Source: a virus
Taxonomy: Duplodnaviria > Caudoviricetes
DNA: 52,636 bases
Strand: one strand, 5' to 3'
IMG/VR virus record: IMGVR_UViG_3300008219_003648
Coordinates: 1-52,636 of that record
Numbering within the stretch: the stretch's first letter is position 1; the number at the start of each line of letters is the position of its first letter. The position numbers and the translations under genes were made by a program. Of this stretch, positions 28,631-47,383 are shown one piece after another. Under the pieces are notes generated by a model. It had not been told where the DNA came from, searched no databases, and saw only the letters and a list, made by a program, of their open reading frames with translations.

Positions 28631-29123
28631 AATCAAAATTACAGAACAGATGAAGCAACGAGCTTGGCGTAAGGCGCGTCAAATGGGAAAACTTAAGCAA
28701 TCTATTACGAAGGGTGATGGCAATATTGCTGGGTTTTTAGGTGAAGAAGTGGCCAATGCAATAGTCAAAGGCGAAATCAGCAATACATATGATTATGATA
28801 TTACTAAGGACGGTGTTAAATATGACGTAAAAACTAAGCGGTGTACTAGCTCGCCCCGTGAACATTACGAGTGCTCTGTTGCTGCCTTTAACACAAAACA
28901 AAAATGCGATCATTATATATTTGTGAGAATTGAAAACATTAGTGGGAAGTGGGGACGCGCGTGGATATTAGGAAGTTATCCAAAACCCGAATATTTTAAA
29001 GATGCGCGTTTTCTAAAAAAGGGACAGAGAGATGGAGACAATTGGTTCAAAGTTAAGGCTGATTGTTATAATATACCAATTAGTAAATTACAGCCCTTAA
29101 AGACCAAAAAGCAAAGGAGATAG
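28623..29123 (+). CDS. Restriction-endonuclease-like PD-(D/E)XK protein
   Basis: GFLGE...YDYDI...YDVKTK...DHYIFV. Confidence 0.65.
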   Translation: MIEIKITEQMKQRAWRKARQMGKLKQSITKGDGNIAGFLGEEVANAIVKGEISNTYDYDITKDGVKYDVKTKRCTSSPREHYECSVAAFNTKQKCDHYIFVRIENISGKWGRAWILGSYPKPEYFKDARFLKKGQRDGDNWFKVKADCYNIPISKLQPLKTKKQRR

Positions 29124-29126
29124 TAT

Positions 29127-29540
29127 ATGACAAAGGTGTCTTCACACAATACGCTTATTGTAGATTGCGATGGTGTTATCGCTGATAAAGCGCACGGAGG
29201 AGAATACGGTAAAGCCGACCCTCTTCTACATGGCATAGAACAGGTAAATAAACTATATGATATGGGATATACCATTACCTTGTATACTGCTCGTTATGGT
29301 GATAGAGAAAGCGGAAATCTACATCGTCAATATGAAAGGGGGTATAAGGAGTGGACGGATTGGCTCGCTAAGCACGGCGTAAAATATCATCATGCGTTCA
29401 TGGGAAAACCAGCGGGTGTAATGTATATTGATGATAAAGCTGCCCGCGTCAAAAGTGATAGCACAGAGGGCTGGGAACAGGTATGGCATGAAGTAGCAGA
29501 ATTACAGGGCAAGGATCAATACGGAAATAAATTGAAATGA
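29127..29540 (+). CDS. Capless HAD-superfamily phosphatase (capsule-biosynthesis type)
   Basis: VDCDGVI (DxD), YTAR, GKP, YIDDKA. Confidence 0.85.
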   Translation: MTKVSSHNTLIVDCDGVIADKAHGGEYGKADPLLHGIEQVNKLYDMGYTITLYTARYGDRESGNLHRQYERGYKEWTDWLAKHGVKYHHAFMGKPAGVMYIDDKAARVKSDSTEGWEQVWHEVAELQGKDQYGNKLK

Positions 29541-30448
29541 CCGCAATAATTGAAGATCTTAATAAAGAATTTCATCTTGGTAATAAGTTTACCCTTCATG
29601 TCGCTGTGGAATTAGCAAATATTCTAGATAATAATTATAGGATTATTGTTAAATACGATGGTCAAGAATTGCCGTATTATGACGATACAAAGTTAAACGT
29701 AATAATTGCCACCTCCAGAGAAACACATGGGCCACCTAATGAATTTCATAGAGATGACGTATTTATCATATTCCAGCACTACTATATGCTTGACCAGTGG
29801 GATGATCCGTGGTATAATTCTTTAGTGTATCCACTTCCCATTGGTACATTTGTAGATGGTTTTGATGATCATATTATTAAACCAATGGCTGAAAGGAAAT
29901 ATGATTTTTCATTTGTGGGACAACTGCCACATACCGGCACTAGAGATTGTTTCAAGAGAAATTTAGATGAACTAATGAACACCAGTGGCAAAAAATTTAA
30001 ATATTTTGTAGAATACACTGATGGTTTTAAAAGGGGGTTAAGTAGCAGCGAATATTTAGAGTTACTCGGAGACACAAAGATATCTCTCTGTCCACAAGGA
30101 GCCTACAGCCAAGAAACATTTCGCTTTTTTGAGTCTATTATGATGGGTGCAATTCCCATGATTGAAAATCTGCCAAAATTATGGTATTATGAAGGCGCCC
30201 CTTTTTTGAAAAGTAAATGGGTTAAACTAGAACAATCATTGTCCGTTAGTCTCAACACTCTACAAACAGAAAAATCACGCAGTGTATTGTATCAGATAGC
30301 GCAATATGTCCAAACCATTTTACACCCACCATCTCTTGCTAAAGTGCTTAAAGACAAAATTGAACATAGACACAAAAATAAGATAGTCGATCAGCCACAT
30401 CTTGATCATTTGAGAAAGCTTTTTAACGAACATACTGACTGGGCATAG
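29537..30448 (+). CDS. Exostosin/GT47-like glycosyltransferase
   Basis: RKYDFSFVG; Y.ELL...KISLCPQG...ETFRFFESIMMGAIP. Confidence 0.75.
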   Translation: MTAIIEDLNKEFHLGNKFTLHVAVELANILDNNYRIIVKYDGQELPYYDDTKLNVIIATSRETHGPPNEFHRDDVFIIFQHYYMLDQWDDPWYNSLVYPLPIGTFVDGFDDHIIKPMAERKYDFSFVGQLPHTGTRDCFKRNLDELMNTSGKKFKYFVEYTDGFKRGLSSSEYLELLGDTKISLCPQGAYSQETFRFFESIMMGAIPMIENLPKLWYYEGAPFLKSKWVKLEQSLSVSLNTLQTEKSRSVLYQIAQYVQTILHPPSLAKVLKDKIEHRHKNKIVDQPHLDHLRKLFNEHTDWA

Positions 30449-30453
30449 CAACA

Positions 30454-32061
30454 ATGACATTGAATTGGATACCTATCAACTGTAAAACTCACTTCAGTTT
30501 GTTGAGGGGTTTTTGTAAACCGGCCGATCTTGCGGCTACATGCAAAAAGTACGGCTACCAAGCGTGTGCTATTGCAGATTTTAAAACTGTTTCTGGGGCG
30601 GTTGATTTTCATCAGGCGTGTCTCGATAATGACATCAAGCCTTTAATAGGATGTGACTTTGATGACTATGTTTTAATAGCAAAAAATAAAGATGGTTGGT
30701 TTGATTTAATTAAACTTGTTACCATACATCACCTATCTCCTGATATTGATACCTTAAAACAAATAGCCCTTAAGGGAAATTTACTTTGTGTCAGCGCGAA
30801 TGAAGTATATAAAAGTATCTTTGGAAAACACTTTGTTAAGTATGATTATAATAACTATAAAGTATATTATGTTAATCGCAAAGACGCAATTCCACATAGG
30901 GTTCTTCTGTGTTCTGGAATGAAAACCACACTCCCAAAAGTACAAACCAAAATTAAAAAAAACGAAGAGATTGATAATAAAGAATTTTTTATGTCTGATG
31001 ATTTCTATCTACCGACTCCCGAGGCATTTGACAACAATACCCAAGAAATTGAATTAGTGAATAAGATTGCTAATATGTGTGAAGATTATGAAATAACAAA
31101 AAAGCCGATGCTCCCACAGTTTAAATGTCCCGATAGTATGGATGAAAATGAATACTTAAAGAAGCTGTGTCGTCATGGATGGAGGCAAAAGCTAATGGCT
31201 TCTGGAAAAGTGGCAAACAAAGAGGACGAAGCGAATTATCTAGCTAGAGTAAAAACAGAATTTGAGGTCATCTTTAAGGCAGAATTATCTGGGTATTTTT
31301 TGATTGTTCAAGATATAGTTAATTATATTAAGGAACAAGGATGGCTTGCGGGACCGGGGCGCGGTTCAGCGGCTGGATGCCTCGTATCGTATCTTCTTGG
31401 TATTACTGAAGTTGACCCTATAGAATATGGGCTTATCTTTGAAAGATTTTACAACGAGGGACGCAATACTGAAGACTATGTTTCTTTGCCCGATATTGAT
31501 GTTGATGTACCCGCTGAACACAGGGACGAAGTAATTGACTATATTCGACAAAAATATAACCCTGAAAATGTATCACAGATGATCACGTTTGGTAGACTTC
31601 AAGGAAGGGCTGCCCTAAAAGAAGTATTACGAATTAATGAAGCTGTATCATTTGCAGAAATGAACGAAATTACTCAAAACATTCCTAACGAAGCTGATAT
31701 ATCAGATCAATTAGAAATAGCAGACGAAAAGTCAATTATTAGATGGGCTTTGATGAATGAATCTGAAAATCTAAAAAAATGGTGTAAAATAAATGAAGAT
31801 CAAACATTGGATGGCGATCTAGCTAGTATGTTTGAACAGGCTATTAACATAGAGGGAACTAATAAATCTCAGGGCAAGCATGCGGCAGGCGTTATAATAT
31901 CACAACACAAACTAAAGGATGTTTGTCCTATGGTTAAAGATAAAACTGGTAATTTAATTGCGGCTTTTGAAATGAATGATCTTGAAAGTCAAGGTCATGT
32001 CAAGTTTGATATTTTGGGTATTGATCTTTTAAGTAAGATCATGGATATAAAGCTTTCCTAA
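30454..32061 (+). CDS. dnaE: DNA polymerase III alpha, N-terminal half (degenerate PHP, palm, thumb)
   Basis: HFSLLRG, YFLIVQD, GPGRGSAAG, LIFERF, PDIDVD, GKHAAGV, ends KFDILGIDLL; all three catalytic Asp present. Confidence 0.95.
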   Translation: MTLNWIPINCKTHFSLLRGFCKPADLAATCKKYGYQACAIADFKTVSGAVDFHQACLDNDIKPLIGCDFDDYVLIAKNKDGWFDLIKLVTIHHLSPDIDTLKQIALKGNLLCVSANEVYKSIFGKHFVKYDYNNYKVYYVNRKDAIPHRVLLCSGMKTTLPKVQTKIKKNEEIDNKEFFMSDDFYLPTPEAFDNNTQEIELVNKIANMCEDYEITKKPMLPQFKCPDSMDENEYLKKLCRHGWRQKLMASGKVANKEDEANYLARVKTEFEVIFKAELSGYFLIVQDIVNYIKEQGWLAGPGRGSAAGCLVSYLLGITEVDPIEYGLIFERFYNEGRNTEDYVSLPDIDVDVPAEHRDEVIDYIRQKYNPENVSQMITFGRLQGRAALKEVLRINEAVSFAEMNEITQNIPNEADISDQLEIADEKSIIRWALMNESENLKKWCKINEDQTLDGDLASMFEQAINIEGTNKSQGKHAAGVIISQHKLKDVCPMVKDKTGNLIAAFEMNDLESQGHVKFDILGIDLLSKIMDIKLS

Positions 32062-32074
32062 ACAGGAGAAAAAA

Positions 32075-32296
32075 ATGGACGCTACAGCGGAAGATTATAA
32101 ATCAGTAATTTTTTCTGGGTGCTCAATAGAATATAAGGATATTTCTATTTGCGATTTGAGGCACCCTCTATCACAAAGTGGTCTTACTAGAGACATGGGA
32201 TATCAAGTCTGGTCTGATAAGCATCATTGTTACAATATTTACAAAAACATTGACGAGGCGGTTAAAAAGTTCATAGCTCTCAAGGGACATGTATAA
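32075..32296 (+). CDS. Small hypothetical protein between the dnaE halves
   Basis: AGGAG RBS; TAATG overlap with the next gene. Confidence 0.7.
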   Translation: MDATAEDYKSVIFSGCSIEYKDISICDLRHPLSQSGLTRDMGYQVWSDKHHCYNIYKNIDEAVKKFIALKGHV

Positions 32297-32979
32297 TGAA
32301 TTATAGAGATATTATTGTATTCGATTTTGAAACTGGTAGCGCTAATCCACATATAACACAGCCCACGCAAATTGCCGCAATAGCGATCCATGCTCGAAAA
32401 TTACAATTGCAACCGGGAGGAACATTTAATAGTGAAATGCGTCCTATTATAGATGATGATAAGGCTATTAAGGCGGGTGTAGCCCCCTTAGAAGATGAGG
32501 CCCTCAAGATCACCAGAAAAAATAGGACCGATTTAGCAAAAGCGCCATTACCAAAAACTGTATGGAAAAAATTTGCAAAATTTTGTGATAAGTATAATTT
32601 CAAAAAAACCAGTTATTATGCTCCTATCGCCGCAGGATTCAATATTAACCATTTTGATATGCCTATAGTTCAACGTATGTGTGAGCAATATGGACCATGG
32701 GATAATAAGCGAGGAGAACAAAAGATATTTAATCCTATTTTTACCATTGATGTTATGCAACATATATACTGTTGGTTTGAAAATAACCAAGATGTCAAGG
32801 GTTATAGTATGGATTATTTGAGGGATTATTTTGGTATCGGCAAGGACAATGCTCATGACGCTTTACAGGATGTAAAAGATACAGCTAATATTTTAATCAA
32901 ATTCATGCGACTTCAGAGAAGCTTATTGAAGAAAGTGAAGTTTGAAAAGTCTTTTGGAGATAAAGCTCTATATGTTTGA
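32296..32979 (+). CDS. dnaQ: DEDDh 3'-5' exonuclease (DnaQ/epsilon-like)
   Basis: ExoI FDFETG, ExoII GFNINHFD, ExoIII AHDALQDV. Confidence 0.9.
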   Translation: MNYRDIIVFDFETGSANPHITQPTQIAAIAIHARKLQLQPGGTFNSEMRPIIDDDKAIKAGVAPLEDEALKITRKNRTDLAKAPLPKTVWKKFAKFCDKYNFKKTSYYAPIAAGFNINHFDMPIVQRMCEQYGPWDNKRGEQKIFNPIFTIDVMQHIYCWFENNQDVKGYSMDYLRDYFGIGKDNAHDALQDVKDTANILIKFMRLQRSLLKKVKFEKSFGDKALYV

Positions 32980-34513
32980 TTTATCAAATTTGCATGATGA
33001 TCACGTCTGGGATTTGATATGTGAGGGTCACACCAAAGGTGTCTTTCAATTAGAATCTCAGCTAGGAAGATCATGGGCTAAAAAAGTGCGACCTAAAAAC
33101 ATCAATGAATTAGCGGCTCTTATTTCTCTAATTCGTCCCGGATGTTTGAAAGCATTTACGGACGGTAAATCTATGACTCAACATTATGTTGATCGTAAAG
33201 CTAACATCGATCCTGTAATTTATCCCGATGAATCTTTAGAACATATTCTTAAAGAAACCTATGGGGTACTTGTGTATCAGGAACAATCTATGATGATTGC
33301 TCAAGAGTTGGCTGGATTCACTCTGAAAGACGCAGATTCGCTCCGTAAGGCCATTGGAAAGAAAAAAGCTGGTTTGATGTCAGAAGTTAAAGAATCGTTT
33401 CTGAGGGGCGCTGAGAGTAAGGGGATAGTCACCAAGGAAATTGCTGAAGAAATATTTTCATGGATTGAAAAATCCAACAGATATGCCTTCAATAAATCCC
33501 ACGCTGTTAGTTACGCCATCAATGCTTATTGGAGTGCTTATTGTAAATTTCATAAAAGAGTACCATTTTACGTGTCTTACTTAAACCATTCTGATCGGAA
33601 ACCAGACCCCCAAAAAGAATTAAAAGAGTTGATTATGGACGCTAAGTTATCCGATATTGAAGTATATCCACCACGCTTACAGCATCTGCACACCAACTTT
33701 GTTGCAATAAATAATAAAATTTATTTTGGCTTGCGGCATATTAAACATATTGGTCAAAAGGAATGTGATAAAATCGAACAGTTATATAGAGATAACGATG
33801 TTTCTAATTATACGTGGATAGATGCATTAATAAATATTATATACAAAGGTAAAATTAACAAAAGGGCAGCAGTAGCCCTGATTTCAGTGGGTGCTTTTAG
33901 TGGCCCAAACAACCAACAACACAGAGAAAAAATGCTATATGAGTTTGATAGCTGGAAAGATCTTACTGCCAGAGAACAAACATATATCTCAGAAAATTAC
34001 AATAGTTCTGATAGTTTATCAGAATGTATAGGCAATATGATACAAGATACTAAAATCAATAGCCGTAGGCTAATTACCGTCCTAGATATTAAACAAATTC
34101 TAGATAATCCCCCTCATGAGGTACAGGATAACATTCCATCAATAGCTCAGCACGAGGAAAAATACATGGGATGCGCCCTTACATGTAGCAGAATGGATGC
34201 TATTAATACTAATTTTTCAACTTATATGTGTAAAGATGTGTCTCGTGGCACTATAAAAGGAAAGGTGAGTTTAATTGTTCAACTAAATTCTATTAGAACA
34301 TATAAAACTAAAAAGGGTAAAAATCCCGGCCAACTGATGGCATTTGTATCTGCGGAAGACGGAAGTGGCGTTTTAGACTCTATTACAGTATTTCCAGAAT
34401 GTTATCAACAATATCGTGACCTCCTAATTGAAGGAAATACAGTATTTATAAATGGAGAAATTTCCAAAAAGGACACTACTTCCGTTATAATAAATAAGGT
34501 GAGCCAAGTATGA
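32972..34513 (+). CDS. dnaE: DNA polymerase III alpha, C-terminal half (fingers, HhH, OB)
   Basis: DDHVW...GVFQLES, SLIRPG, ETYGVLVYQEQ, ADSLRKAIGKK, YAFNKSHA, FGLRHIKHIG, OB-fold MAFVSAEDGSG; ATG 32972 overlaps the exonuclease stop. Confidence 0.95.
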   Translation: MFDLSNLHDDHVWDLICEGHTKGVFQLESQLGRSWAKKVRPKNINELAALISLIRPGCLKAFTDGKSMTQHYVDRKANIDPVIYPDESLEHILKETYGVLVYQEQSMMIAQELAGFTLKDADSLRKAIGKKKAGLMSEVKESFLRGAESKGIVTKEIAEEIFSWIEKSNRYAFNKSHAVSYAINAYWSAYCKFHKRVPFYVSYLNHSDRKPDPQKELKELIMDAKLSDIEVYPPRLQHLHTNFVAINNKIYFGLRHIKHIGQKECDKIEQLYRDNDVSNYTWIDALINIIYKGKINKRAAVALISVGAFSGPNNQQHREKMLYEFDSWKDLTAREQTYISENYNSSDSLSECIGNMIQDTKINSRRLITVLDIKQILDNPPHEVQDNIPSIAQHEEKYMGCALTCSRMDAINTNFSTYMCKDVSRGTIKGKVSLIVQLNSIRTYKTKKGKNPGQLMAFVSAEDGSGVLDSITVFPECYQQYRDLLIEGNTVFINGEISKKDTTSVIINKVSQV

Positions 34514-34848
34514 ATAAATGTCACTTTGTAGGAATGTTGGCTGATGATCCTCACTTAGTAAATATTAATAATACATATCTAGTTACATTTACTCTAGCGA
34601 TTGAAGACCACCGCAAAGATAAGGATGGTAGTAAAAAACGTAGAGTAGATTTTTTACGGTTTGAAGCATGGGCTACAGGCGCTCAAACGATTGATAAACA
34701 TGCTCATAAAGGTGATTTTATGGCTGTTGAATCTATTGCAAGACAGTCAACATCGCACCAAGAAAAAAAATCGGACACAATCACTTTTAGGGTCACTAAT
34801 TTTAAAATCTTTAACAATAATAAGCTAAATGAAGATGACGAAAAATAA
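34510..34848 (+). CDS. ssb: Single-stranded DNA-binding protein
   Basis: MNKCHFVGMLADDP, FTLAI, DFLRFEAW, KGD, acidic tail. Confidence 0.85.
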   Translation: MNKCHFVGMLADDPHLVNINNTYLVTFTLAIEDHRKDKDGSKKRRVDFLRFEAWATGAQTIDKHAHKGDFMAVESIARQSTSHQEKKSDTITFRVTNFKIFNNNKLNEDDEK

Positions 34849-36481
34849 AAAAGTATTATTCTGTTCTGAAGCATCATGGTTGCCCACGGGATATGCCGTA
34901 TATACTAAAGAAGTTTTATCCCGACTTTGTCAGATAGACGGCATTGAAGTGGCTGAATTAGCTTGCTATGTTGATAGTAATGATGTTAATATTTCTTCTG
35001 TTCCATGGAAAGTGTATCCCAATAAACCTTTACCTAATGATCCCACACATGATTCATATAAAGGTAATATTACAGCTCAGTTTGGGGAACAAGCCTTTAA
35101 TTCTGTCTTATTAGATTTTCAACCTGATGTAGTCATGGATATTCGTGATTGGTGGATGATTGAATTTCAGCAACGGTCTCCATTTAGAGACTTTTTTCAT
35201 TGGGCTATTATGCCTACTGTAGATGCTGCCCCACAGGGTAATCAATGGATCAATACTTATGCGTCAGCTGATTCGGTGTTCGCATACTCTGAATTCGGGC
35301 GAGACATTTTGTTGCAACAATGCGATAATATAAAATTTGTGGATGTAGCATCTCCGGCTGCAAGTCAACACTTTCAACCACACCCAAACAAACAACAACA
35401 CAAAATCGATATGGGGATTTCTCCAGAGTCCCTAATTGTAGGCACAGTGATGCGTAACCAAAAACGCAAACTATATCCTGATCTTTTTCAATCTTTTCGA
35501 GCTTTTGTGGATCAAGTTAATGATCCTAATGTATTTTTATATTGTCATACCTATTACCCAGATATAGGATGGGATATTCCGGGCTTAATAAACGATAACG
35601 GTCTTTCTAATCGCGTACTCATGACTTACAAATGCAAGAATTGTCAAGATATAACTGTAGACTTTTTTCAAGATGCTATTAAATATTGCAATAAATGTCA
35701 ACATTTTAATAGCCACTTAGTAGGTATTAATAATTCAATAGGCGAACCAGATTTAGCCAGCATATATAACCTATTTGATATATATGTACAATATGCCAAC
35801 AGTGAGGGTTTTGGGATGCCGCAACTTGAGGCTGCTAATTGTGGGCTTCCCGTTATATCTACTTATTATTCTGCGATGCAGTCTGTGATTGATAAGATTG
35901 GCGGCATGGGTATTGTGCCTCTAAGCTTTTATGTGGAATGTGAAACTGGTTGTAATAGGGCAGTTCCGAATAATGAAGTATTTGTTAATACTCTTGTCGA
36001 ACTACATAAAAACAAATATAAGTTACGAGACATTGGCGCAGAAACTAAAAAGAATGCTGTGGCAAATTATAGTTGGGATAAAACGGCGGATGTGTGGGCT
36101 AAGCATATTCTACAGTTAGAACCAAAAGATCCGTCAACCACTTGGTTTTCTCAACCCCATATCCCACAGCCAGCCACAGAAGTTCCAGAAGAAATAATTT
36201 CTATAGTAGACAAGGTTGATTTTATATTTAACAATATACTACATAAACCACAGTGGATAGGGAGCTATTTGTGGAAGCGTGTGTTGCGAGATATTACATT
36301 TGGATATAAATGTGAAAACATAACTAAAGACTTTTACTTTAACGAATCACATATTCAGTCTTATACTGGAAATACTCCCTTCTCACTAGAGCAAGCATGC
36401 CAAGAAATGGTTAACTTTAGAAATCAAATAAATCAGTGGGAACAGTCGCGCGCCCAAATGATGCAACAAGAAGGATATTAA
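34829..36481 (+). CDS. GT4 glycosyltransferase with Zn-ribbon-like insertion
   Basis: TGYAVY, RNQKRK, SEGFGMPQLEAANCGLPV; CKNC...CNKC insert. Confidence 0.9.
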   Translation: MKMTKNKKVLFCSEASWLPTGYAVYTKEVLSRLCQIDGIEVAELACYVDSNDVNISSVPWKVYPNKPLPNDPTHDSYKGNITAQFGEQAFNSVLLDFQPDVVMDIRDWWMIEFQQRSPFRDFFHWAIMPTVDAAPQGNQWINTYASADSVFAYSEFGRDILLQQCDNIKFVDVASPAASQHFQPHPNKQQHKIDMGISPESLIVGTVMRNQKRKLYPDLFQSFRAFVDQVNDPNVFLYCHTYYPDIGWDIPGLINDNGLSNRVLMTYKCKNCQDITVDFFQDAIKYCNKCQHFNSHLVGINNSIGEPDLASIYNLFDIYVQYANSEGFGMPQLEAANCGLPVISTYYSAMQSVIDKIGGMGIVPLSFYVECETGCNRAVPNNEVFVNTLVELHKNKYKLRDIGAETKKNAVANYSWDKTADVWAKHILQLEPKDPSTTWFSQPHIPQPATEVPEEIISIVDKVDFIFNNILHKPQWIGSYLWKRVLRDITFGYKCENITKDFYFNESHIQSYTGNTPFSLEQACQEMVNFRNQINQWEQSRAQMMQQEGY

Positions 36482-36482
36482 T

Positions 36483-37169
36483 ATGAATCACAGTAAACAT
36501 CCAGCAATACAAAAGTCTATCGATGAGGCCCAAGGTACTATACCGGACAACTTTAATGGACAGTTATTTCAAGATGTGTTTGTGAATGAAGTATTGGATA
36601 TTGACAATGGTTTTTTTGTGGATATAGGGGCTGGCACAGATGGTGTTAGAAATATGCCTATGAGTTTCTTCAGTAATACATATAACCTTGAAAGACGAAG
36701 AAACTGGACGGGTATTGCTATAGATTATGATAAAGAATACATAGATACGGCCCAATCTCATCGCCGTTGTCAGTGTGTGTGTGCTGATTTAATGGCAACC
36801 AATATAAATGATATATTAAAAGAATCCAACTGTCCTTCTGATGTAAACTATTTATCATTTGATGTGGACGAGGCCCAACCAAAGGTTCTTAGCGAACTCG
36901 ATCTTTCAAAATACAGATTCCAAATAATTACATATGAACATAATTTGTACCAAGGCTGCGACAAAGATCAAAAAATATCGAGAAACAAATTCAAAGAAGC
37001 AGGATACGAAATCTTGTGCGGAAACGTGATACTACACGATGTCGGTGTCGTAGAAGACTGGTACGTACACTCAGAATTTTTTGATCAATACGCACACTTT
37101 CAGTACCACGACATGAATTGTTTAACTATCGTAAACAATATAATTAGAAACAAACGCAAGCCCAAATGA
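36483..37169 (+). CDS. FkbM-like methyltransferase
   Basis: GQLFQD, GFFVDIGAG, SNTYNLE...WTGIAID, YLSFDVD, ITYEH. Confidence 0.8.
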   Translation: MNHSKHPAIQKSIDEAQGTIPDNFNGQLFQDVFVNEVLDIDNGFFVDIGAGTDGVRNMPMSFFSNTYNLERRRNWTGIAIDYDKEYIDTAQSHRRCQCVCADLMATNINDILKESNCPSDVNYLSFDVDEAQPKVLSELDLSKYRFQIITYEHNLYQGCDKDQKISRNKFKEAGYEILCGNVILHDVGVVEDWYVHSEFFDQYAHFQYHDMNCLTIVNNIIRNKRKPK

Positions 37170-37188
37170 AGCAAGAAAGAGAAGTTCG

Positions 37189-38274
37189 ATGAAAGTACTT
37201 TACATAGGACATTATAAAGATGGTACCGGATGGGCCAATGCTGCCATTAATAATATACTGGCGCTCGATTCTGTAGGTGTTGAAGTAGTGCCGCGTGCTA
37301 TTACATTTGAAACCGAGCCAAAATCATATCCTAACAGAATCCAAGAACTAGAACAAGCTTCCAGTGAAGGGTGTGATATTTGTATACAACATACATTACC
37401 TCACCTATATTCTTATAATTCCAATTTTAAAAACATAGGATTTATTGCCAGCGAGACTAACCATTTCAAAGACAGCTCATGGCAGCATTATGCTAACCTA
37501 ATGGATGAAATATGGGTGCCCAGTATGCATACTAGGGTTGCATGTCGTATGAGTAATATAAAGGTTCCGGTCAATATTGCTCCTCATTCTTTGGATACTT
37601 CATCCTATAGTAAAATGTTAGAGGGAAATAAAATTCAGGAACTGGTTCACACATTCAACTTTGCTTTTGTTGGAGAGTTTATAGAAAGAAAAAATGTACA
37701 AGCATTGATACGCGCATTTCACACAGAATTTGGAGTGTCCGAACCTGTGAATCTATTTATTAAAACATCCCAACAATCCTTAGATTATGTGCAAAACTAT
37801 TGTAAGCAAATCAAGAATGGGTTAAAGCTACGAAAAAGATATAAAGAAGAAATTGTTGTATGTGGATATCTTAGTAAAGAAGATTATGTGTCAGTGTTGT
37901 CTCAGTGTCATTCTTTTGTAATGCCCAGTCGAGGAGAGGCGTTTTGTATTCCGGCTCTTGAAGCTATGGCGCTTGGTATACCAGTAATCTATACTAAAAA
38001 AACGGGGATGGACGACTTTTGCTTAGGAACGGCTGTGAAATCTATACAAGTTCCGTGTGTGGGTGCCATATCTACGCTTCCTAATCTATGTACTGCAAAC
38101 AATAAGTGGGCAGAAATAAATGTCGAAGAGTTGGCCATTGCCATGCGTAAAGTGTATATGCAATGGCAAACTGAAGCATCGCAAAAACAACGTAAGGCAT
38201 CTATTAAAAAAGCTAAATCATATAGCCACCAAAAGGTTGGAGCACAGTTAAAGGAATTATTGAATGACAGCTAA
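37189..38274 (+). CDS. GT4 glycosyltransferase
   Basis: TGWA, DEIWVPS, ERKN, PSRGEAFCIPALEAMALGIPV. Confidence 0.92.
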   Translation: MKVLYIGHYKDGTGWANAAINNILALDSVGVEVVPRAITFETEPKSYPNRIQELEQASSEGCDICIQHTLPHLYSYNSNFKNIGFIASETNHFKDSSWQHYANLMDEIWVPSMHTRVACRMSNIKVPVNIAPHSLDTSSYSKMLEGNKIQELVHTFNFAFVGEFIERKNVQALIRAFHTEFGVSEPVNLFIKTSQQSLDYVQNYCKQIKNGLKLRKRYKEEIVVCGYLSKEDYVSVLSQCHSFVMPSRGEAFCIPALEAMALGIPVIYTKKTGMDDFCLGTAVKSIQVPCVGAISTLPNLCTANNKWAEINVEELAIAMRKVYMQWQTEASQKQRKASIKKAKSYSHQKVGAQLKELLNDS

Positions 38275-39283
38275 CGCTACCCCAATGGCCGTTAGGTCTA
38301 TATTACGGCGTCAACAGCGACAAGAGCCGCTGAATATATTGACATTTTGTACCCATGAAAGATATGAACAAAAACTGTGTCAAACGGGTCACAATTTTTA
38401 TTCAATCAACTATGGTAAAGAATGGGATACTGATTATGGTGACATTCCTGAAAATTATTACGTTATAAACGAAGTACCGTCTTACATAAATTTTGATTTG
38501 ATTTTATGTCATACCGCTTGTGATAGACTTCGTGTATCACATAATATTAAAAATGATTTTAATATACCCATACTGCTCCATATGCACGTACTACCAGACA
38601 TAAGAAACGATGTGGCTACACAGGTAAATCAGTTTCAAATCGCTACTGCTAATGTAGACCAAAAGAGTTTTATTTCTGAATTTAGTATGAAGGCATGGGG
38701 ATCTACTGTACAGGATGCGACATTTATTGAACATGGCGTAGAGACAGACTTTTGGTCTGTTGACACAGAAATAGAACGTGATAATGCTTGTTTGTCGGTT
38801 GTAAATGATTGGCCTAATAGAGATTGGTGTTGTGGTTGGGAACTATGGAAAAATACAATAGGAATTAATACTCCAGAAGCGCTTCCAGTCAAGGTGTTTG
38901 GGAAAAGTCCCGGTTTTTCAGAACCCGCTCAATCAATAGAACATCTACGGCAAATTTACCAAACGTCTAAGATATTTTATAATACCTCATTACACTCCCC
39001 AGTGCCAACATCATTGCTGGAAGCCATGGCGTGCGGATGTGCAGTAGTATCAACAGCTACATGCATGATTCCCGAAATTATAGAACATGAGAAAAATGGT
39101 TTTATATCTAACGATCCCAATGAGCTACGGCAATTTCTAGAAGTGTTACTTAATGATGATAAATTGGCGCAACAGCTTGGCCAAGAAGCTAGAAATACCA
39201 TGGTAGAAAAATACAATCTACAAAGGCATATAGATAACTGGAACAAAATATTTTATGCAACAATTGCAGCCTATAAGGACTAA
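38264..39283 (+). CDS. GT4 glycosyltransferase
   Basis: IEHGVET, PTSLLEAMACGCAVVST, EIIEHEKNGF. Confidence 0.9.
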   Translation: MTANATPMAVRSILRRQQRQEPLNILTFCTHERYEQKLCQTGHNFYSINYGKEWDTDYGDIPENYYVINEVPSYINFDLILCHTACDRLRVSHNIKNDFNIPILLHMHVLPDIRNDVATQVNQFQIATANVDQKSFISEFSMKAWGSTVQDATFIEHGVETDFWSVDTEIERDNACLSVVNDWPNRDWCCGWELWKNTIGINTPEALPVKVFGKSPGFSEPAQSIEHLRQIYQTSKIFYNTSLHSPVPTSLLEAMACGCAVVSTATCMIPEIIEHEKNGFISNDPNELRQFLEVLLNDDKLAQQLGQEARNTMVEKYNLQRHIDNWNKIFYATIAAYKD

Positions 39284-39286
39284 CAA

Positions 39287-39709
39287 ATGAAAATATATCT
39301 ATCACCACACCAACCTAATGAAACATATAACGCATGGATTTCCAATATAGCGACTCTAGATGGACAGGTGCTAGATAGCGAAGCTACGCAAATTATTGCA
39401 TATCAATTTTTATCTATGTTCACTTATGATGAAGTTAGCCAAATTATACCGAAGATCGCTCAAAAAATGAGACTTAATTGTGAATTAACTATAGTTGAAC
39501 CTGATTTTAATTTACTAGCACAACAATATATTAGAGATGATTTCTCAATAGGTAATATCAATCAGATTATGTTTAATGGAAATTATATCAAGAGCGCCTT
39601 GAATCTAGAAGAAGTTGTTAGTTATCTTCCATCAAATTTAACTATTCATGAAAAGTCATTTAATGCATCATTGGCTCAAATGATAATCAAATGTAGGAGA
39701 GAGTCATGA
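39287..39709 (+). CDS. Hypothetical protein, possibly a degenerate methyltransferase fold
   Basis: L-x-I-x-E-PDF segment like class I MTase C-terminal strands; no glycine-rich SAM motif. Confidence 0.4.
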   Translation: MKIYLSPHQPNETYNAWISNIATLDGQVLDSEATQIIAYQFLSMFTYDEVSQIIPKIAQKMRLNCELTIVEPDFNLLAQQYIRDDFSIGNINQIMFNGNYIKSALNLEEVVSYLPSNLTIHEKSFNASLAQMIIKCRRES

Positions 39710-40482
39710 TAACTACATCGTGTAAAGGGTGTGTCTTTGCGACCTATACTGATAAACAACAATCAGGATGCCAATTGGGGCGCGCAGACAAGCTTACATA
39801 TGAAACTAATGAAGATGGCCATTATATGGTGCAACGATTTTGTAACACATATCGCCCCGAAGAATGGCTTAAAGAATTGTCACTAGATGAATATGAAAAC
39901 CGTCACGATGTGGTTCTTAATGAAACTGTTCCGCGTGTAGGGTTTTTTATAATATTTGACCCCACACACAATATAGAAGACCTAAGAATTACATTGGAAG
40001 ATATACAACGTCAAACCATACCCCCTCGATATGTGGCTGTTATAAATAGTAAAGTAGAATATAATATAGAAATTCAAGCAATCTTTAAAGAGATGTTTGA
40101 TTTTGATGTTACCATGCACCATATAGTACAAATGTCTTCTTTTCCAGAAGACCACAATCTTTTAGTAGATGAAGCATTTACGCATGCAAAAAATGGATGG
40201 TTATATATAACATATTCTCATGAGAAAATAGATAGAGATTTAGTTTCTAAAATGCATGCTCGCATTAACATCAACATGAAACCATTGGTTGTTGTTAAGC
40301 CGTACGAAGGTATTAAAGGGCTCCTATTTCAAACATCACTTTTTAAATTACTTAATGGCAATAAAACAAAAATGTATCACGATCAATCGGTTGACACTAG
40401 ATCATTTCTAGATAAAGTAGACGAAATGCCTAAAGATAATTCTAATACAGTTATTACGTGGAGTAAATTTAATGAAGCCTAA
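39706..40482 (+). CDS. Cys-rich N-terminus plus degenerate GT2-like domain
   Basis: CKGC...C...C; TLEDIQRQTIPP resembles a GT2 N-terminal segment. Confidence 0.45.
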   Translation: MITTSCKGCVFATYTDKQQSGCQLGRADKLTYETNEDGHYMVQRFCNTYRPEEWLKELSLDEYENRHDVVLNETVPRVGFFIIFDPTHNIEDLRITLEDIQRQTIPPRYVAVINSKVEYNIEIQAIFKEMFDFDVTMHHIVQMSSFPEDHNLLVDEAFTHAKNGWLYITYSHEKIDRDLVSKMHARININMKPLVVVKPYEGIKGLLFQTSLFKLLNGNKTKMYHDQSVDTRSFLDKVDEMPKDNSNTVITWSKFNEA

Positions 40483-41281
40483 TGTTGCGATAATTATAAG
40501 TAACTATAACTATAGTGCTTATGTTCTTGAAGCTATTCATAGTGCGCTAAATCAAACTTACGATGGCAATTTACAGGTGTATATGTTAGATGATGGCTCA
40601 TCTGATGATTCATGGGCTAAGATATCATCTATTACATGGGAAAATGAAGGGGATGCTGAGTGGGGGGCTGAGGAAATAGACACTAAATATTACAAGGGTG
40701 TAATCGAGAGACGACAAAAAAACAATTTATATGCCTATCGAATTGATAATTCAGGAGCAAGTACGGCTCGCAATGTAGCTATATGGGAGGCGTGGCAATG
40801 GGCTGATATATTTGGTATATTGGATGCAGATGATATGTATGAGCCAAACAAAGTGAAAATTCTAGTAGACAAACTGTTAGAGCATCCTGAAATAGGGGTG
40901 GCTTATGCTGACTATAGAATTCACAGACAGATGGATCATCATAATTACACTAAATATGAAATCAAACACCCGTATAGTAGAGAGTTGCTGCTACAAAAAT
41001 GTATCGTACATATTGGCTCTTTAATCAAAAAAGAATATCTTCAACAAGTCATATTACCGCTTAATAGCGAAATATTTGACAGTAGGTTACACGGCCCCGG
41101 TAGTCAATCCTTTATTGGGTGTACAGAGGATTATGATCTGTGGCTTCGGTTATCTAAGGTCTGCATGATGACTCATGTGCCAGAACCTTTATCTATTGTG
41201 CGCGAAACTGGCCAAAATCAATCATTGAAAATGACTACCGAAACCTTCCAGAGAAATGCGCAAATTTTACAAACGAGATAA
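40472..41281 (+). CDS. GT2 glycosyltransferase
   Basis: YNY...SALNQTY, DDGSSD, GASTARN, LDADD, EDYDLWLR. Confidence 0.93.
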   Translation: MKPNVAIIISNYNYSAYVLEAIHSALNQTYDGNLQVYMLDDGSSDDSWAKISSITWENEGDAEWGAEEIDTKYYKGVIERRQKNNLYAYRIDNSGASTARNVAIWEAWQWADIFGILDADDMYEPNKVKILVDKLLEHPEIGVAYADYRIHRQMDHHNYTKYEIKHPYSRELLLQKCIVHIGSLIKKEYLQQVILPLNSEIFDSRLHGPGSQSFIGCTEDYDLWLRLSKVCMMTHVPEPLSIVRETGQNQSLKMTTETFQRNAQILQTR

Positions 41282-42007
41282 ATGACTAGATTCACAAAAA
41301 AAATTACCGAACCTCCAGTTACTACTTTGCATAATAGTATAGCTATTATCATTTTGTCGGCTGGAGTTGGCAATAGAATTAAATCATACGAACCTAGAAG
41401 CTTACTAAAAATTGGACAAACCACTTTAATTGATCACCAGCTTTCTGTTTTAAATAACTCATTTCATTTTCCAGAAATAATCGGAGTGTTTGGTTATTTA
41501 GTCGAAAAAGTAGTTAAAAAGGTTCGAGGTAAAATACGCATAATAGAAAATCAAATATACCAAGAAACTAATACAGCAGAAAGCCTCAGACTAGCATTTA
41601 ACAGCACCACCAAAAATGATCTATTATTTTTTCATGGTGACCTATATTTTAACCTTGGTACATTACAAGGATTAGATTATAGTAAATCATTTTTATTGAT
41701 TGACAATAAACAGCAATTGCACGATAAAGAAGTGGGAGTCACGGTATGTGATAACAAAGCTACTATATTGTCATACGGCCTTCCTACTAAGTGGTGCCAA
41801 ATAGCATATATTACTGGTAAAGAATTTAAAATATTGAAACATATATTTCAAAAATTTAATAACAATCAAAAAAAAATGCTCGTTTTTGAAATTATAAACC
41901 AAATGATTGCAATGGGTGCGGTTTTTCATTGCTACGAACCTAAAAAGATGTCTATTGTGGAAATAGACTGCATAAAGGATATCAATTATGAAAATTTTAA
42001 TAAGTAG
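41282..42007 (+). CDS. Sugar/choline-phosphate nucleotidyltransferase-like (LicC family)
   Basis: IILSAGVGNRI, PRSLL, ETNTAESL, HGDL, EID. Confidence 0.8.
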   Translation: MTRFTKKITEPPVTTLHNSIAIIILSAGVGNRIKSYEPRSLLKIGQTTLIDHQLSVLNNSFHFPEIIGVFGYLVEKVVKKVRGKIRIIENQIYQETNTAESLRLAFNSTTKNDLLFFHGDLYFNLGTLQGLDYSKSFLLIDNKQQLHDKEVGVTVCDNKATILSYGLPTKWCQIAYITGKEFKILKHIFQKFNNNQKKMLVFEIINQMIAMGAVFHCYEPKKMSIVEIDCIKDINYENFNK

Positions 42008-43028
42008 TGACGGAAAGCATGCGCACTACTATCAAAGAATGGCGTGGGCCACAGCGCTTACCAAGGCGGATTTTCAGGTAAGTATGTGGGATTGCAAAAG
42101 CGTTCCAGCTTTTGATGTATTTGATGCATTTGAGCCCGATATATTTTTAGGACAATCATATAATCTCGATACATCGTTATTAAAATGTATATACGAACGA
42201 CCTCATATAAAAGTAGGCTTACGAGTTGGTGACTGGGGTGATCATGAAGACATGGTAGATAAAACAAAATATAACATATTGTATTGCTCTCAAAAGGAAA
42301 AAGATGTTCTCAAAAAGCTCAAAGAAGAAACCGGTAAACCAGACTTTGTACATATTCATTATGACGAAAATGCTGTTAAGATCACCCATAACCATTTTGA
42401 ATCAATAGGAATAAAACCAATCTCATTAATGATGTGTGCTGACACCACAGCTTACAGTAGTGCTCAATATGACCCTAAGCTAGAATGTGATATAGGTTTT
42501 GTGGGAGGTTATTGGCCCTATAAAGGACTTGTTATAGACCAATATCTAACACCACTTTTAGATCCCCCTAATTATAAAGTTAAGATTTTTGGTAATCAAG
42601 TGTGGCCTGTTAATCAATACTGTGGCCTCTTATCAGACAACGATGTCAAAAACCTATTTGTATCTGCTAGAATATGTCCCAATCTCAGTGAGCCTCATGC
42701 CCAAGAATTTGGTATTGATGTAAATGAACGAATTTTTAAAATATTATATGCGGGAGGTTTTTGTATTTCAGATAAGGTGGATTCTTATAAAATGTTTGGA
42801 GATGGTTTGGTAATTGTTAACAGTCCAGAAGATTTCAGAGATAAAATAGATCACTATTTAGCCAATCCATCTGAACGATACAAAATTGCAGAAGTTGGCC
42901 AAAAACATGTTACAGAAAACCACACAGGATTTCACAGGAGCGCTCAAATCATGAATGCGTTTGATTTGACTAATTTATCAGAACGCATAATGAATCAATA
43001 TGAGGAAACAGTAAATGTCACAATCTAA
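41988..43028 (+). CDS. CgeB/Glyco_trans_1_2-like GT-B glycosyltransferase
   Basis: DIGFVG, ICPN, NERIFKI...GGFCISD, ER.KIAE.G. Confidence 0.8.
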   Translation: MKILISSDGKHAHYYQRMAWATALTKADFQVSMWDCKSVPAFDVFDAFEPDIFLGQSYNLDTSLLKCIYERPHIKVGLRVGDWGDHEDMVDKTKYNILYCSQKEKDVLKKLKEETGKPDFVHIHYDENAVKITHNHFESIGIKPISLMMCADTTAYSSAQYDPKLECDIGFVGGYWPYKGLVIDQYLTPLLDPPNYKVKIFGNQVWPVNQYCGLLSDNDVKNLFVSARICPNLSEPHAQEFGIDVNERIFKILYAGGFCISDKVDSYKMFGDGLVIVNSPEDFRDKIDHYLANPSERYKIAEVGQKHVTENHTGFHRSAQIMNAFDLTNLSERIMNQYEETVNVTI

Positions 43029-43977
43029 GGTTTTAGTTACAGGTGGAAAAGGTTTTTTAGGAAAATCTTTATGCGCGCTATTGAGACAAAATCAATCCTA
43101 TAATGTAATAGCCTTATCCGGTAAATCTCAGTGGGATCTAACTAACCAACGTTATGTCGATTATATGTTACAAGAGTTTACTCCTGATGTAGTGATACAC
43201 TTAGCCGCCAGAGTAGGAGGTATTGGAGCCAACAAAAAAAATCCCGGACTCTTTATGTATGAAAATTTGGCTATGGGTATGAATCTTATTGAGTCTTGTA
43301 GAAAATATGGCAAACTAAAAAAGTTTATTATGGTTGGTACCGTTTGCGCATATCCTAAGTTTACTGAGGTGCCTTTTAAGGAAACAGATATATGGAATGG
43401 TTATCCAGAAGAAACAAATGCTCCCTATGGAATAGCTAAAAAGGCTCTTATGGAGCTATTAATAGCCTATAACAAACAATACGATTTTCAGTGTACTAAC
43501 CTTATACCAGTAAATATGTATGGACCCAACGATAATTTTGATCCCAATATAAGTCATGTAATTCCAGCACTGATTTTAAAGTTTGCTAAAGCCATACAAA
43601 ACCACCATAAGCCAGTTGAAATATGGGGTACTGGAAAAGCTAGTCGTGAATTTTTGTATGTAGATGATTGTGCTCATGCCATATCTCAGGCAATTGAACT
43701 ACACACAACACCACAACCAATTAATGTGGGTACAGGCGATGAGGTTACCATTAGAACATTAGCACACTATATTAGTAGAATAATGGAATATAAAGGTGAT
43801 ATATATTTTAACTCTCAGCACCCAGACGGGCAGCCTCGAAGATGTTTAGATACGTCGGTTGCCAAAGAGACACTTAAATTTACAGCTTCTACAGGTTTAG
43901 AAACAGGATTACAAAACACCGTAACATGGTTCAATAGAAACAAGGATAGATTCGTTGATTACTTCGATCATATTTAG
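43015..43977 (+). CDS. fcl: GDP-L-fucose synthase (Fcl/WcaG)
   Basis: TGGKGFLG, LAARVGGIGAN, GTVCAYPK, YGIAKK, NMYGPNDNF, SHVIPALI, WGTGKASREFLYVDD, PDGQPR. Confidence 0.95.
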   Translation: MSQSKVLVTGGKGFLGKSLCALLRQNQSYNVIALSGKSQWDLTNQRYVDYMLQEFTPDVVIHLAARVGGIGANKKNPGLFMYENLAMGMNLIESCRKYGKLKKFIMVGTVCAYPKFTEVPFKETDIWNGYPEETNAPYGIAKKALMELLIAYNKQYDFQCTNLIPVNMYGPNDNFDPNISHVIPALILKFAKAIQNHHKPVEIWGTGKASREFLYVDDCAHAISQAIELHTTPQPINVGTGDEVTIRTLAHYISRIMEYKGDIYFNSQHPDGQPRRCLDTSVAKETLKFTASTGLETGLQNTVTWFNRNKDRFVDYFDHI

Positions 43978-44800
43978 TAAAGACCGTCCAGCTCAGCTGG
44001 ATTTATGTCTCAATAGTATCAAAAAGAATTTTGCAGATTCTAATAGAAATATTGTGTTATACAACAACACTAAAGATTTTATAGAAGCCCATAAGATATT
44101 ACAAAGTGAACATAAGGATGTAGACTTTTGGCCACAAGGGTTATCTTTATTTAAAGATCTGTATGCCACTATTGCAAGCTCTGATAATGATTATATTTGC
44201 TTTTTTACTGACGATGATATAGTATACCAACCAGTAAAAACAATTGACTATAATTCAATTCTACAAAATGACCACATCGCTTGCCTATCTCTAAGAATGG
44301 GTTTGAATATCTCTGAAAGATCTCACGATGGTGTTGTGGGACAAGACACACCAGCAGCATATCATGAATATGATGATATTATCTTATGGTCAAAAACAGC
44401 CAACACATACGGGTCCTATTGGTCATATTCTTTATCAGTAGATGGTCATATATTTAGAAAAAATGAAATATTAGACATGATAGATGAATTATGTTGCTTA
44501 GCAGATCGCTATCATTGGGATCAAACACCTAACGCACTAGAAGGGGCGCTTCAAAGGTTTTGGACAATCTCCCCGAACACGATGGCATCATTTAAGAATA
44601 GTGTGGTAGTCAATAGCCCGAATAACCGTGTACAGGAAAGTCATCTCAATAGATCAGGTGATAAGTATAGCGCCGATAGCAATTTCCTGCTGGGGAAGTA
44701 TTTGGCAGGACAAAGGATTAAGTTGGAATATTTAAATTTTGATAATATAAAATGTCCACATACAGAAATTGATCTCATGTTAGGTTTGTATGACAAATAA
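43955..44800 (+). CDS. GT-A (GT2-like) glycosyltransferase
   Basis: IIFSKDRPAQL, FFTDDD. Confidence 0.7.
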   Translation: MITSIIFSKDRPAQLDLCLNSIKKNFADSNRNIVLYNNTKDFIEAHKILQSEHKDVDFWPQGLSLFKDLYATIASSDNDYICFFTDDDIVYQPVKTIDYNSILQNDHIACLSLRMGLNISERSHDGVVGQDTPAAYHEYDDIILWSKTANTYGSYWSYSLSVDGHIFRKNEILDMIDELCCLADRYHWDQTPNALEGALQRFWTISPNTMASFKNSVVVNSPNNRVQESHLNRSGDKYSADSNFLLGKYLAGQRIKLEYLNFDNIKCPHTEIDLMLGLYDK

Positions 44801-45773: not shown

Positions 45774-46564
45774 GATATGAGGCTATAGGAAGCGTACAAT
45801 GGGAAGCTAAAGATCTAATTAATTCTCTAGAAGATTTTTTGCAAATATATGCATATCGCCCCATTCGTGATAATGAGGGAGGAATGACTTCTTCTCACAT
45901 GTTTGCTACATGGTTTTTATGTAAACAACTTAATCCCCAATATATTATTGAAAGTGGTGTATGGAAAGGGCAAAGTTCTTGGTTATTGGAAACGGCGTGC
46001 CCAGATGCAAAAATTATATCCATTGATCCAGATCTTCAAATTCGACAATATATATCACCTCGCATACAATATGCAGTTACAGATTTTAATAATACGAATT
46101 GGGATTCAATAAACAAGAATGAGACACTATGTTTTTTCGATGATCATTATGGAGTCGATAGAGTAAAGCAAGCTGCGCAACACGGCTTTAAGCACATCTT
46201 GTATGAAGATAATTATCACGATGGCAGAGGTAATAGTTATCATCCCTCCTATGGGCATATTGCTAACATGGAACCTTTAACCGAAGGTGAGCGATCATAT
46301 TCCCCCAAAGCATCGTTTTTACTAAATACTAAAGATGCACAATGGCTACAAGATAACATAGAAATATATTATGAATTTCCCCCCATATATTCATCTGTAG
46401 ATTCTGATCGTGGTTATGGGTGGGCCAAAATAAGCAGAGAACAATATTTAGATATTACACCCCCTCCTTTATTTAGTACATATCATCCCCGGTTCGACAT
46501 TTATTATAAAGAAGCGCCAGATTATACATGGATAACTTATATTAAGTTAAAGGAGACTCTATGA
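45770..46564 (+). CDS. Class I SAM-methyltransferase-like protein
   Basis: IIESGVWKGQSS, IISID, FFDDH; ATG 45770 overlaps the previous stop. Confidence 0.6.
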   Translation: MRYEAIGSVQWEAKDLINSLEDFLQIYAYRPIRDNEGGMTSSHMFATWFLCKQLNPQYIIESGVWKGQSSWLLETACPDAKIISIDPDLQIRQYISPRIQYAVTDFNNTNWDSINKNETLCFFDDHYGVDRVKQAAQHGFKHILYEDNYHDGRGNSYHPSYGHIANMEPLTEGERSYSPKASFLLNTKDAQWLQDNIEIYYEFPPIYSSVDSDRGYGWAKISREQYLDITPPPLFSTYHPRFDIYYKEAPDYTWITYIKLKETL

Positions 46565-47382: not shown

Positions 47383-47383
47383 T

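Follow-up and report, generated by a model that had tools for sequence, protein, structure and literature searches.

The DNA polymerase III alpha subunit (Pol III alpha, DnaE) of an uncultured marine phage is encoded in two pieces, with the gene of a DEDDh exonuclease lodged between them, in the IMG/VR virus record IMGVR_UViG_3300008219_003648 (Duplodnaviria; Caudoviricetes), a metagenomic contig whose 52,636 nucleotides (nt) are here called the window and whose CheckV completeness estimate is 36%. In the textbook view of bacterial replication the catalytic subunit, Pol III alpha, is one polypeptide chain, and to our knowledge the only well-known split form of it requires a split intein. In the window the N-terminal piece (N-half) and the C-terminal piece (C-half) are two intact open reading frames (ORFs), each with its own start and with the ends that a first-pass annotation of the DNA had given them. 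The gene anatomy, the clean break, its conservation, the selection on both pieces and the precedent of split gp43 and NrdA in other phages lead us to consider it likely that the halves are made separately from a coupled message and reassemble non-covalently over the palm/fingers interface, with the exonuclease as their proofreader.

The N-half matches the Pfam PHP domain at amino acids (aa) 10-97 (E = 3.6e-15) and covers the entire DNA_pol3_alpha model (positions 1-260 of 260, E = 9e-73). All three catalytic aspartates lie within its palm, in PDIDVDVP (aa 346-353) and KFDILG (aa 517-522), and no variation occurs in the matching columns among 26 sequences. A lysine replaces the first histidine of the HxH motif (INCKTHFS), which makes it doubtful that the PHP domain acts as a nuclease. 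The C-half matches DNA_pol3_finger (positions 26-165 of 166, E = 2e-44) and HHH_6 (E = 4e-11), while its match to the tRNA_anti-codon OB family is weak (21.2 bits, below the curated cut-off of 27); the AlphaFold2 (AF2) model of a contiguous relative, P0001, has a C-terminal all-beta unit at residues 970-1051. The YAFNKSHA motif, previously reported as intact, is found whole at aa 171-178 of the C-half. An upstream TTG at 32942 is also open in the C-half frame, but relatives start at the position of ATG 32972. Along the 1190 positions of PHROG family phrog_405, the N-half lies at 245-609 and the C-half at 627-1069. Neither half is damaged, and the residues conserved in the family are retained in both; the cassette polymerase conforms to the DnaE type in its PHP, palm, fingers and HhH domains, with a sub-threshold OB match, but departs from it in not being one polypeptide.

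Alignments to the Taq and E. coli alpha subunits place the break at the palm/fingers junction, in agreement with the first-pass annotation. Residue 527 of the N-half is aligned to Taq alpha 626 and E. coli alpha 563; residue 3 of the C-half is aligned to Taq alpha 646 and residue 7 to E. coli alpha 591, and the C-half alignment spans Taq alpha 646-946. Past the Pfam palm model the N-half runs on for 13 aa, and the C-half opens 5 aa ahead of the fingers match. The same junction can be compared in P0001-P0003, contiguous 1052-aa ocean-metagenome proteins with 60-61% identity to 99% of the N-half (P0001: 61% to the N-half and 55.5% to the C-half). It reads KFDILGIDLLSKILKISSDTDINLNDFDDCDTW in P0001, and KFDILGIDLLSKIMDIKLS (stop), then MFDLSNLHDDHVW, in the window. 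The distance from SKI to W is 18 residues in the window, with the new initiator methionine included, against 19 in P0001, and the earlier statement that almost nothing was lost at the break thus comes down to a single residue. The AF2 model of P0001 (mean pLDDT 88.8) has a helix at 521-532, a ten-residue coil at 533-542 and a helix at 543-551, with mean pLDDT values of 95, 89 and 95 for the three 10-residue blocks over 521-550, and the N-half ends at the position of P0001 residue 532, where the last palm helix terminates. In this predicted structure the break is placed at the palm/fingers junction, in the short coil after the last palm helix. Domain order and motifs are like those of single-chain DnaE (Taq, 2HPI/3E0D; E. 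coli, 2HNH/5FKU; M. tuberculosis, 5LEW; P0001-P0003), whereas in the window a cut behind the last palm helix leaves two ORFs, separated by two genes. The palm/fingers junction is not a break point in any PHROG family; phrog_405, 11165 and 21652 all span it.

The five ORFs of the cassette are co-directional and tightly packed on the plus strand in 30454-34848 (Table 1). The N-half stop TAA (32059-32061) is followed by AGGAG and by the ATG of the 73-aa ORF at 32075. As first described, a 73-aa ORF and a DEDDh exonuclease lie between the halves and are coupled by overlapping stop and start codons, namely TAATG (32294-32298) between the 73-aa ORF and the exonuclease, and ATGTTTGA (32972-32979), with GGAG 12 nt upstream, between the exonuclease and the C-half. 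The C-half stop in turn overlaps the start of the single-stranded DNA-binding protein (SSB) gene by 4 nt (34510-34513). The N-half and the C-half stand 910 nt apart in different reading frames, so read-through is unable to fuse them. Matches to the promoter consensus (32 found, 29.4 expected) and the terminator consensus (5 found, 4.1 expected) over 29000-36000 are at chance level and hence give no inference on transcription units.

Table 1. Features of the split polymerase cassette in the window
Feature	Position	Strand	Remarks
dnaE N-half, 535 aa	30454..32061	+	short PHP, palm, thumb; ends KFDILGIDLLSKIMDIKLS then stop
Spacer, 13 nt	32062..32074	+	AGGAG at 32064-32068, ribosome-binding site of the 73-aa ORF; sequence read directly
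73-aa ORF (s73)	32075..32296	+	conserved; stop overlaps exonuclease start
DnaQ-like DEDDh 3'-5' exonuclease, 227 aa	32296..32979	+	Pfam RNase_T, phrog_192
Coupling signal	32956..32979	+	GGAG 32956-59 in exonuclease 3' end; C-half ATG 32972; exonuclease TGA 32977-79
dnaE C-half, 513 aa	32972..34513	+	fingers, HhH domain, probable C-terminal OB fold; begins MFDLSNLHDDHVWDLICEGHTKGVFQLES
SSB, 112 aa	34510..34848	+	Pfam and PHROG matches; start overlaps C-half stop

The tail of the exonuclease, (K)FEKxFxxGxxYV (window 32941-32976), is conserved across relatives. As this region overlaps both the GGAG ribosome-binding site and the C-half start, its conservation may be due to the coupling signal, to a docking peptide, or to both.

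Our proposal is that a single cassette, co-directional and coupled in translation, would yield the N-half and the C-half as two polypeptides, along with the DnaQ-like proofreading exonuclease, the 73-aa protein and SSB. The polymerase halves would reassemble without a covalent bond over the normal palm/fingers interface, and the exonuclease would serve as proofreading subunit. Physical association of the halves, their activity and the docking of the exonuclease are predictions of this model. Several points weigh against it. The window holds only ~36% of the genome, and another polymerase may be encoded elsewhere. Contiguous relatives (P0001-P0003, L071, L074, L075 and L092) indicate that the split is not needed for function. 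Two related loci, L077 and L078, have no C-half within 6 kb of the N-half, and some N-halves may be without a partner. Finally, no RNA run is among the sequencing runs listed for the locus.

The arrangement is widespread among relatives. With the N-half as query, a first IMG/VR scan retrieved 69 loci, their N-halves sharing 41-82% identity with that of the window, and a second, wider scan, with an alignment of contiguous relatives as query, matched at least 589 stretches, 557 of them confirmed relatives; counts for the second scan refer to the best 80 of these at least 589 matched stretches. The order N-half, exonuclease, C-half was observed in 51/69 loci of the first scan, while seven of the 69 show N-half and exonuclease cut by the contig end, a further 11, five with an N-half end but neither exonuclease nor C-half matched on the stored DNA and six without the N end, are too short for a verdict, and none carries a contiguous dnaE. 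In the second scan (best 80) the order is found in 68/80, with N-half and exonuclease cut by the contig end in another five; dnaE is contiguous at the junction with the exonuclease upstream in three (L074, L075 and L092) and contiguous with the exonuclease elsewhere in one (L083), and only the N end is seen in three (L077, L078 and L087). The two independent collection scans thus comprise 51 + 68 = 119 complete loci, all with the same break point, and with N-halves 40-82% identical to that of the window. An SSB match follows within 400 nt of the C-half in 32/40 (first scan) and 58/62 (second scan, best 80) of the loci that reach that far. The order N-half, small ORF, exonuclease, C-half and SSB is conserved in relatives, which supports the earlier view of one polymerase cassette followed by SSB.

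One of the contiguous loci deserves separate mention. In L083 (6019-11719) an 849-aa ORF is contiguous over palm and fingers to about C-half residue 343, and the exonuclease lies ~1 kb downstream, followed by C residues 348-499; the exonuclease is therefore nested at a different break point. The L083 branch is very long on the tree (1.08).

Both halves are under purifying selection and are co-inherited. The ratio of non-synonymous to synonymous substitution rates (dN/dS, Nei-Gojobori method, with dS saturated in many pairs) is 0.040-0.056 for the N-half, 0.034-0.063 for the C-half, 0.013-0.053 for the exonuclease and 0.019-0.156 for the 73-aa ORF; the range for the halves matches that of the exonuclease and of neighbouring genes. 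In the best-behaved pairs, L019/L026 and L044/L054 (dS 0.9-1.8), both halves give 0.034-0.048. Pairwise distances of the N-half and the C-half co-vary strongly (r = 0.945, Mantel p = 0.001) over 79 distinct loci, drawn from 85 loci with single-piece matches.

These data bear on the possibility that the halves are functional without forming one enzyme, for example with the C-half as a DNA- or clamp-binding factor and the N-half paired with another protein. The halves may indeed lie more than 6 kb apart (L077), and for jumbo phages the accessible part of PMC7824862 describes a Pol III alpha of another, minimal kind, whose two proteins are encoded far from each other. However, the palm of the window enzyme has the catalytic aspartates, and its fingers have conserved motifs that align to solved alpha subunits. 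We know of no case where either the palm part or the fingers part of a C-family enzyme is a polymerase alone. Together with the co-varying distances and with contiguous sisters that differ by one junction residue, this makes separate functions for the two halves improbable.

Far less can be said for a broken and decaying gene, with replication taken over by the host or by another phage polymerase. Such decay would be in keeping with the fact that 36% of the genome is in hand and that contiguous relatives exist, but dN/dS is ~0.04-0.06 on both halves in every informative pair, the catalytic residues are kept, the halves are co-inherited and the same break recurs in the 119 complete loci; we regard this explanation as very unlikely. 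The first-pass annotation had named contiguous dnaE in close relatives, with relaxed selection on the window halves, as a finding that would speak against a functional split. The contiguous relatives do exist (P0001-P0003, 60-61%), but the relaxed selection does not (dN/dS 0.03-0.06), and because of this the contiguous relatives do not refute the reading of two chains that reassemble.

Rejoining of the halves after translation, by a split intein or another kind of protein ligation, would have parallels close by. Split inteins occur in the same gene of relatives L059, L075 and L092, and the accessible text of PMC2677866 reports three fractured DnaE loci with split inteins. Still, neither Hint nor intein domains were found by Pfam in the four cassette ORFs (E <= 0.01), nor were Intein_splicing and Hint found in a six-frame search of the whole window (E <= 1), as expected from the first-pass remark that neither end shows an intein block. 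Moreover, the ends lie only 13 aa and 5 aa from the domain matches, and the combined length of the pieces falls one residue short of the contiguous relative, which leaves no room for intein parts. The same method does pick up Hint or Intein_splicing at the broken ends of relatives with extra breaks, and hence rejoining by ligation has hardly any likelihood in the window.

These three relatives illustrate how such breaks look. In L059 a 394-aa ORF comprises PHP, palm positions 1-65 and an intein, and is followed by a 281-aa ORF from palm position 66, so that the palm is broken at GRG|SAAGC. The same GRG|SAAGC break is found in L075, with a TnsA-like endonuclease ORF between the pieces. In L092 an 894-aa ORF is contiguous over palm and fingers and has a Hint segment at its end, after which come a NUMOD3/DUF559 ORF and the remainder of the protein. 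The breaks in L059, L075 and L092 are of the 'fractured genes' type, and the palm/fingers break differs from them in kind. The regions concerned are 5776-8047 and 9303-11300 (L059), 5992-8383 (L075) and 6001-10687 (L092), and in all three relatives an endonuclease ORF separates the intein parts. The L092 site is at or beside the YAFNKSH motif, and the C-half of L059 has a further in-frame intein near the same motif.

Phage genes can carry group I introns, and T4 gene 60 is read by translational bypass; the halves could accordingly be joined through a self-splicing or trans-splicing intron or through ribosomal bypassing. Yet a permissive scan of 29500-35500 with Rfam families, introns included, gave 0 hits at E <= 1, and the gap of 910 nt is taken up by two ORFs on which purifying selection acts. 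In relatives the gap varies from ~0.7 kb to more than 6 kb and differs in gene content, and a separate start codon and ribosome-binding site serve each of the halves. Joining at the level of RNA or of decoding is thus about as implausible as joining by protein ligation.

An assembly chimera, conceivable since the window is a metagenomic contig, has a negligible probability: 20 DNA runs from 19 studies each contain at least 73% of the sampled words of the locus, contigs from three runs of different studies (records X13: 4 and 5; X17: 21 and 22; X15: 13 and 15) bridge both junctions (N-half/73-aa ORF/exonuclease and exonuclease/C-half) with 98-100% identity and no indels, and the order recurs in 119 contigs. 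Coverage across both junctions had been put forward as a check by the first-pass annotation, and the bridging contigs and the common order in the 119 loci show that the layout is neither chance nor an assembly artefact. Joints from read placement were discounted, as all had fewer than 30 letters on the shorter side and joints that short often stem from other organisms.

IMG/VR scans with contiguous P0001 and P0016 returned nothing; a metagenome scan recovered P0001's own contigs. Among GenBank phages a nucleotide search with 30454-34513 gave no match, and protein searches gave contiguous DnaE only, at no more than 36% identity. The two identical contigs that encode P0001, L071 and L072, share synteny with the window, and identity between flanking genes is 29-71%. 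Here the exonuclease (69% identical) directly precedes an intact dnaE, its stop codon overlapping the dnaE start, and both the 73-aa ORF and SSB are lacking. In L092 the order is 73-aa homologue, exonuclease and dnaE. Altogether the exonuclease is upstream in five contiguous-dnaE loci, directly so in L071, L072, L074 and L092, and with one ORF intervening in L075.

The history of the split seems to involve several changes. In a maximum likelihood tree of N + C (67 rows) the P0001 group is sister to the split clade of the window, and a second split clade falls outside both (SH-aLRT 93-95); a single split clade was not rejected by the AU test on this tree (p = 0.304). A FastTree of 126 rows (93 split and 33 contiguous), which leaves out loci without full N and C, duplicates, L070 (the window's own copy), L072 and the bacterial-like L073, has four state changes, at least three of which are required by branches with good support. 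Two histories would account for them: repeated entry of the exonuclease cassette into the same linker, or repeated re-fusion of split genes that left the exonuclease upstream. It is conceivable, though we would not yet favour it, that the palm/fingers linker is a recurrent and possibly reversible point of fission and fusion, where the exonuclease cassette (with or without its micro-ORF) has moved between the upstream and the nested position at least three times, and that nesting persists because it determines in what order and stoichiometry a three- or four-subunit core of N-half, micro-protein, exonuclease and C-half is assembled co-translationally. If so, the cassette would be a gene-level counterpart of the PolC domain insertion and would mark a natural, portable split site for C-family polymerases.

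The exonuclease encoded in the gap has the DEDDh motifs, with Exo I at FDFETG (aa 9-14), Exo II at NHFDMP (aa 118-123) and Exo III at HDALQD (aa 187-192), and residues D10, E12, D121, H187 and D192 are invariant in 37 sequences. It matches Pfam RNase_T (E = 6e-13) and phrog_192, 'DNA polymerase exonuclease subunit' (E = 8e-22). Compared with PDB sequences, its profile comes closest to 2p1j, the exonuclease domain of a PolC, a weak similarity (E = 8e-6). The exonuclease gene always adjoins dnaE or nests in it, and this linkage suggests that its product may be the proofreading subunit of the polymerase.

Homologues of the 73-aa ORF open the gap throughout the clade of the window (52 hits, 40 distinct sequences). 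YQ is invariant in this family, conservation extends to G, C, V, F and L positions, and neither Pfam nor PHROG gives a match. The AF2 model (pLDDT 79.7) shows a helix, three strands and a helix, for which Foldseek found nothing usable in PDB (best E = 1.9). A role as theta-like partner of the exonuclease was considered and received no support; a complex prediction of the two proteins, run without controls, scored 0.00 and speaks neither for nor against binding. In a sister clade (12 tree rows, the L044 to L068 group) the gap is without any small ORF. In distant relatives (L085-L153) the slot is held by a ~60-aa ORF with a conserved VSCC(K/R)S.NA motif, in an alignment that pools 63 distinct sequences, and in six loci (L097, L103, L120, L122, L127 and L137) by a ~90-aa ORF. 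Relationship of the 73-aa and ~60-aa families was rejected by profile-profile comparison (hhalign probability 0.3%). The position of a small ORF is thus conserved, but the micro-proteins appear, from their profiles, not to be homologous.

In the window the gap is occupied by the 73-aa ORF and the DEDDh exonuclease only, and no free-standing homing endonuclease is present. In relatives, various cargo genes are found between exonuclease and C-half (Endonuclease VII, HNH, FkbM-type and class 24 methyltransferases, formyltransferase) or between small ORF and exonuclease (glycosyltransferases). The most extreme case is L077 (5992-13881; also L078), where metabolic genes (glyoxalase-like, aldehyde dehydrogenase, DDAH-like, class III aminotransferase and UDP-glucose dehydrogenase-like) fill 6 kb or more after an N-half of 639 aa with the usual end point; exonuclease and C-half are absent from the stored DNA of L077. 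The gap acts as an ordinary intergenic insertion hot spot, and its unrelated cargo fits independent translation of the two halves and argues against splicing in cis.

Among known polymerases, PolC of Firmicutes has a DEDDh exonuclease fused in-frame within its PHP domain, in a single chain. Here too the exonuclease stands inside the coding order of the polymerase, but in the window it is a separate gene between palm and fingers. Cyanobacterial split DnaE likewise makes Pol III alpha from two genes; dnaE-n and dnaE-c lie at separate loci, carry the parts of a split intein and are ligated by trans-splicing, as covered in the accessible text of PMC2677866. By comparison, the window version is intein-free, has another break site, and keeps the halves adjacent with the exonuclease between them. 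The same source (Dassa et al. 2009, PMC2677866), as far as its accessible text goes, describes 'fractured genes' composed of a split intein and a free-standing endonuclease, including a Vsr-like family, with three DnaE loci among them. Their habitat is the same and their phage group is probably the same as that of the window, and L059, L075 and L092 show the arrangement; in contrast, the window break is intein-free and its gap is occupied by a DEDDh exonuclease instead of a homing endonuclease. The accessible part of that paper does not mention a palm/fingers break for its DnaE loci.

An intein-less split gp43 (43A/43B) is reported for Aeromonas phages 25 and 44RR, the pair of phage 25 co-purifying and being active, and a split NrdA of phage Aeh1 is reported as functional (both in the accessible text of PMC2988022). 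Like the window polymerase, these are two-cistron phage replication enzymes without a splicing element; the co-purification and activity of their pieces serve as the working model for the window. However, gp43 belongs to family B and the window polymerase to family C, and the gp43 and NrdA cases are, from the same text, sporadic, with a homing endonuclease or an untranslated spacer in the gap, whereas in the window the nested gene is that of a probable functional partner, and a very large clade shares the layout. A minimal split Pol III alpha, predicted to reconstitute, is described for group 2.2 jumbo phages in the accessible part of Iyer et al. 2021 (PMC7824862). This is likewise a two-protein catalytic module of a phage Pol III alpha, but a core without PHP or other domains, encoded by distant genes beside a family B polymerase, while in the window a full DnaE is cut once within one cassette. 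In open-access papers and bioRxiv full text we found no description of an intein-less palm/fingers split of DnaE with a nested exonuclease. The cassette most likely belongs with the non-covalent 'genes in pieces' known among phage replication enzymes.

A Pol III alpha of two chains, with no rejoining element and under strong selection, is found in a very large group of aquatic phages. Should the halves reconstitute, the palm/fingers linker would be a permissive split site of the C-family, of use in engineering and in structural work on fingers closing; the contiguous sisters (55-61% identical, P0001 type) would form a natural pair for measuring the cost or gain of the split; and the repeated change between split and contiguous forms would be a datable gene fission and fusion in an essential enzyme. 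For annotation pipelines, the halves would be tagged as partial genes, as pseudogenes or as two 'DNA polymerase III alpha' genes, and the nested exonuclease may be overlooked as a part of the same enzyme.

The neighbours of the cassette in the window include class II ribonucleotide reductase, RecA, a DnaB-type helicase, a Toprim primase, dNMP kinase, a PD-(D/E)XK nuclease, dUTPase and PhoH, and no PolA or PolB domain was found in the window. Just past the HhH domain, C-half aa 321-328 (33932-33955) read MLYEFDSW, part of a motif (R/N)xMLYE(F/Y)DxW that is kept in the alignment consensus of split and contiguous relatives. The internal clamp-binding motif of E. coli alpha presumably falls roughly at this region; no sliding-clamp gene was found among the 30 window ORFs scanned with Pfam. 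A contig in an uncultured Flavobacteriales metagenome-assembled genome (L156, 5001-5441) carries an N-half fragment, cut at the contig end, that is 54% identical to aa 5-154 of the window N-half, and is at most a weak hint to the host of a related phage. On the 3' side of SSB (34829-52636) there is a long co-directional run of glycosyltransferases (GT1/GT4, GT2 and GT8 families), in which a NeuB-family (nonulosonic acid synthase-like) protein is fused to a cupin domain (50058-51581); for a phage, this is a large glycan-synthesis island.

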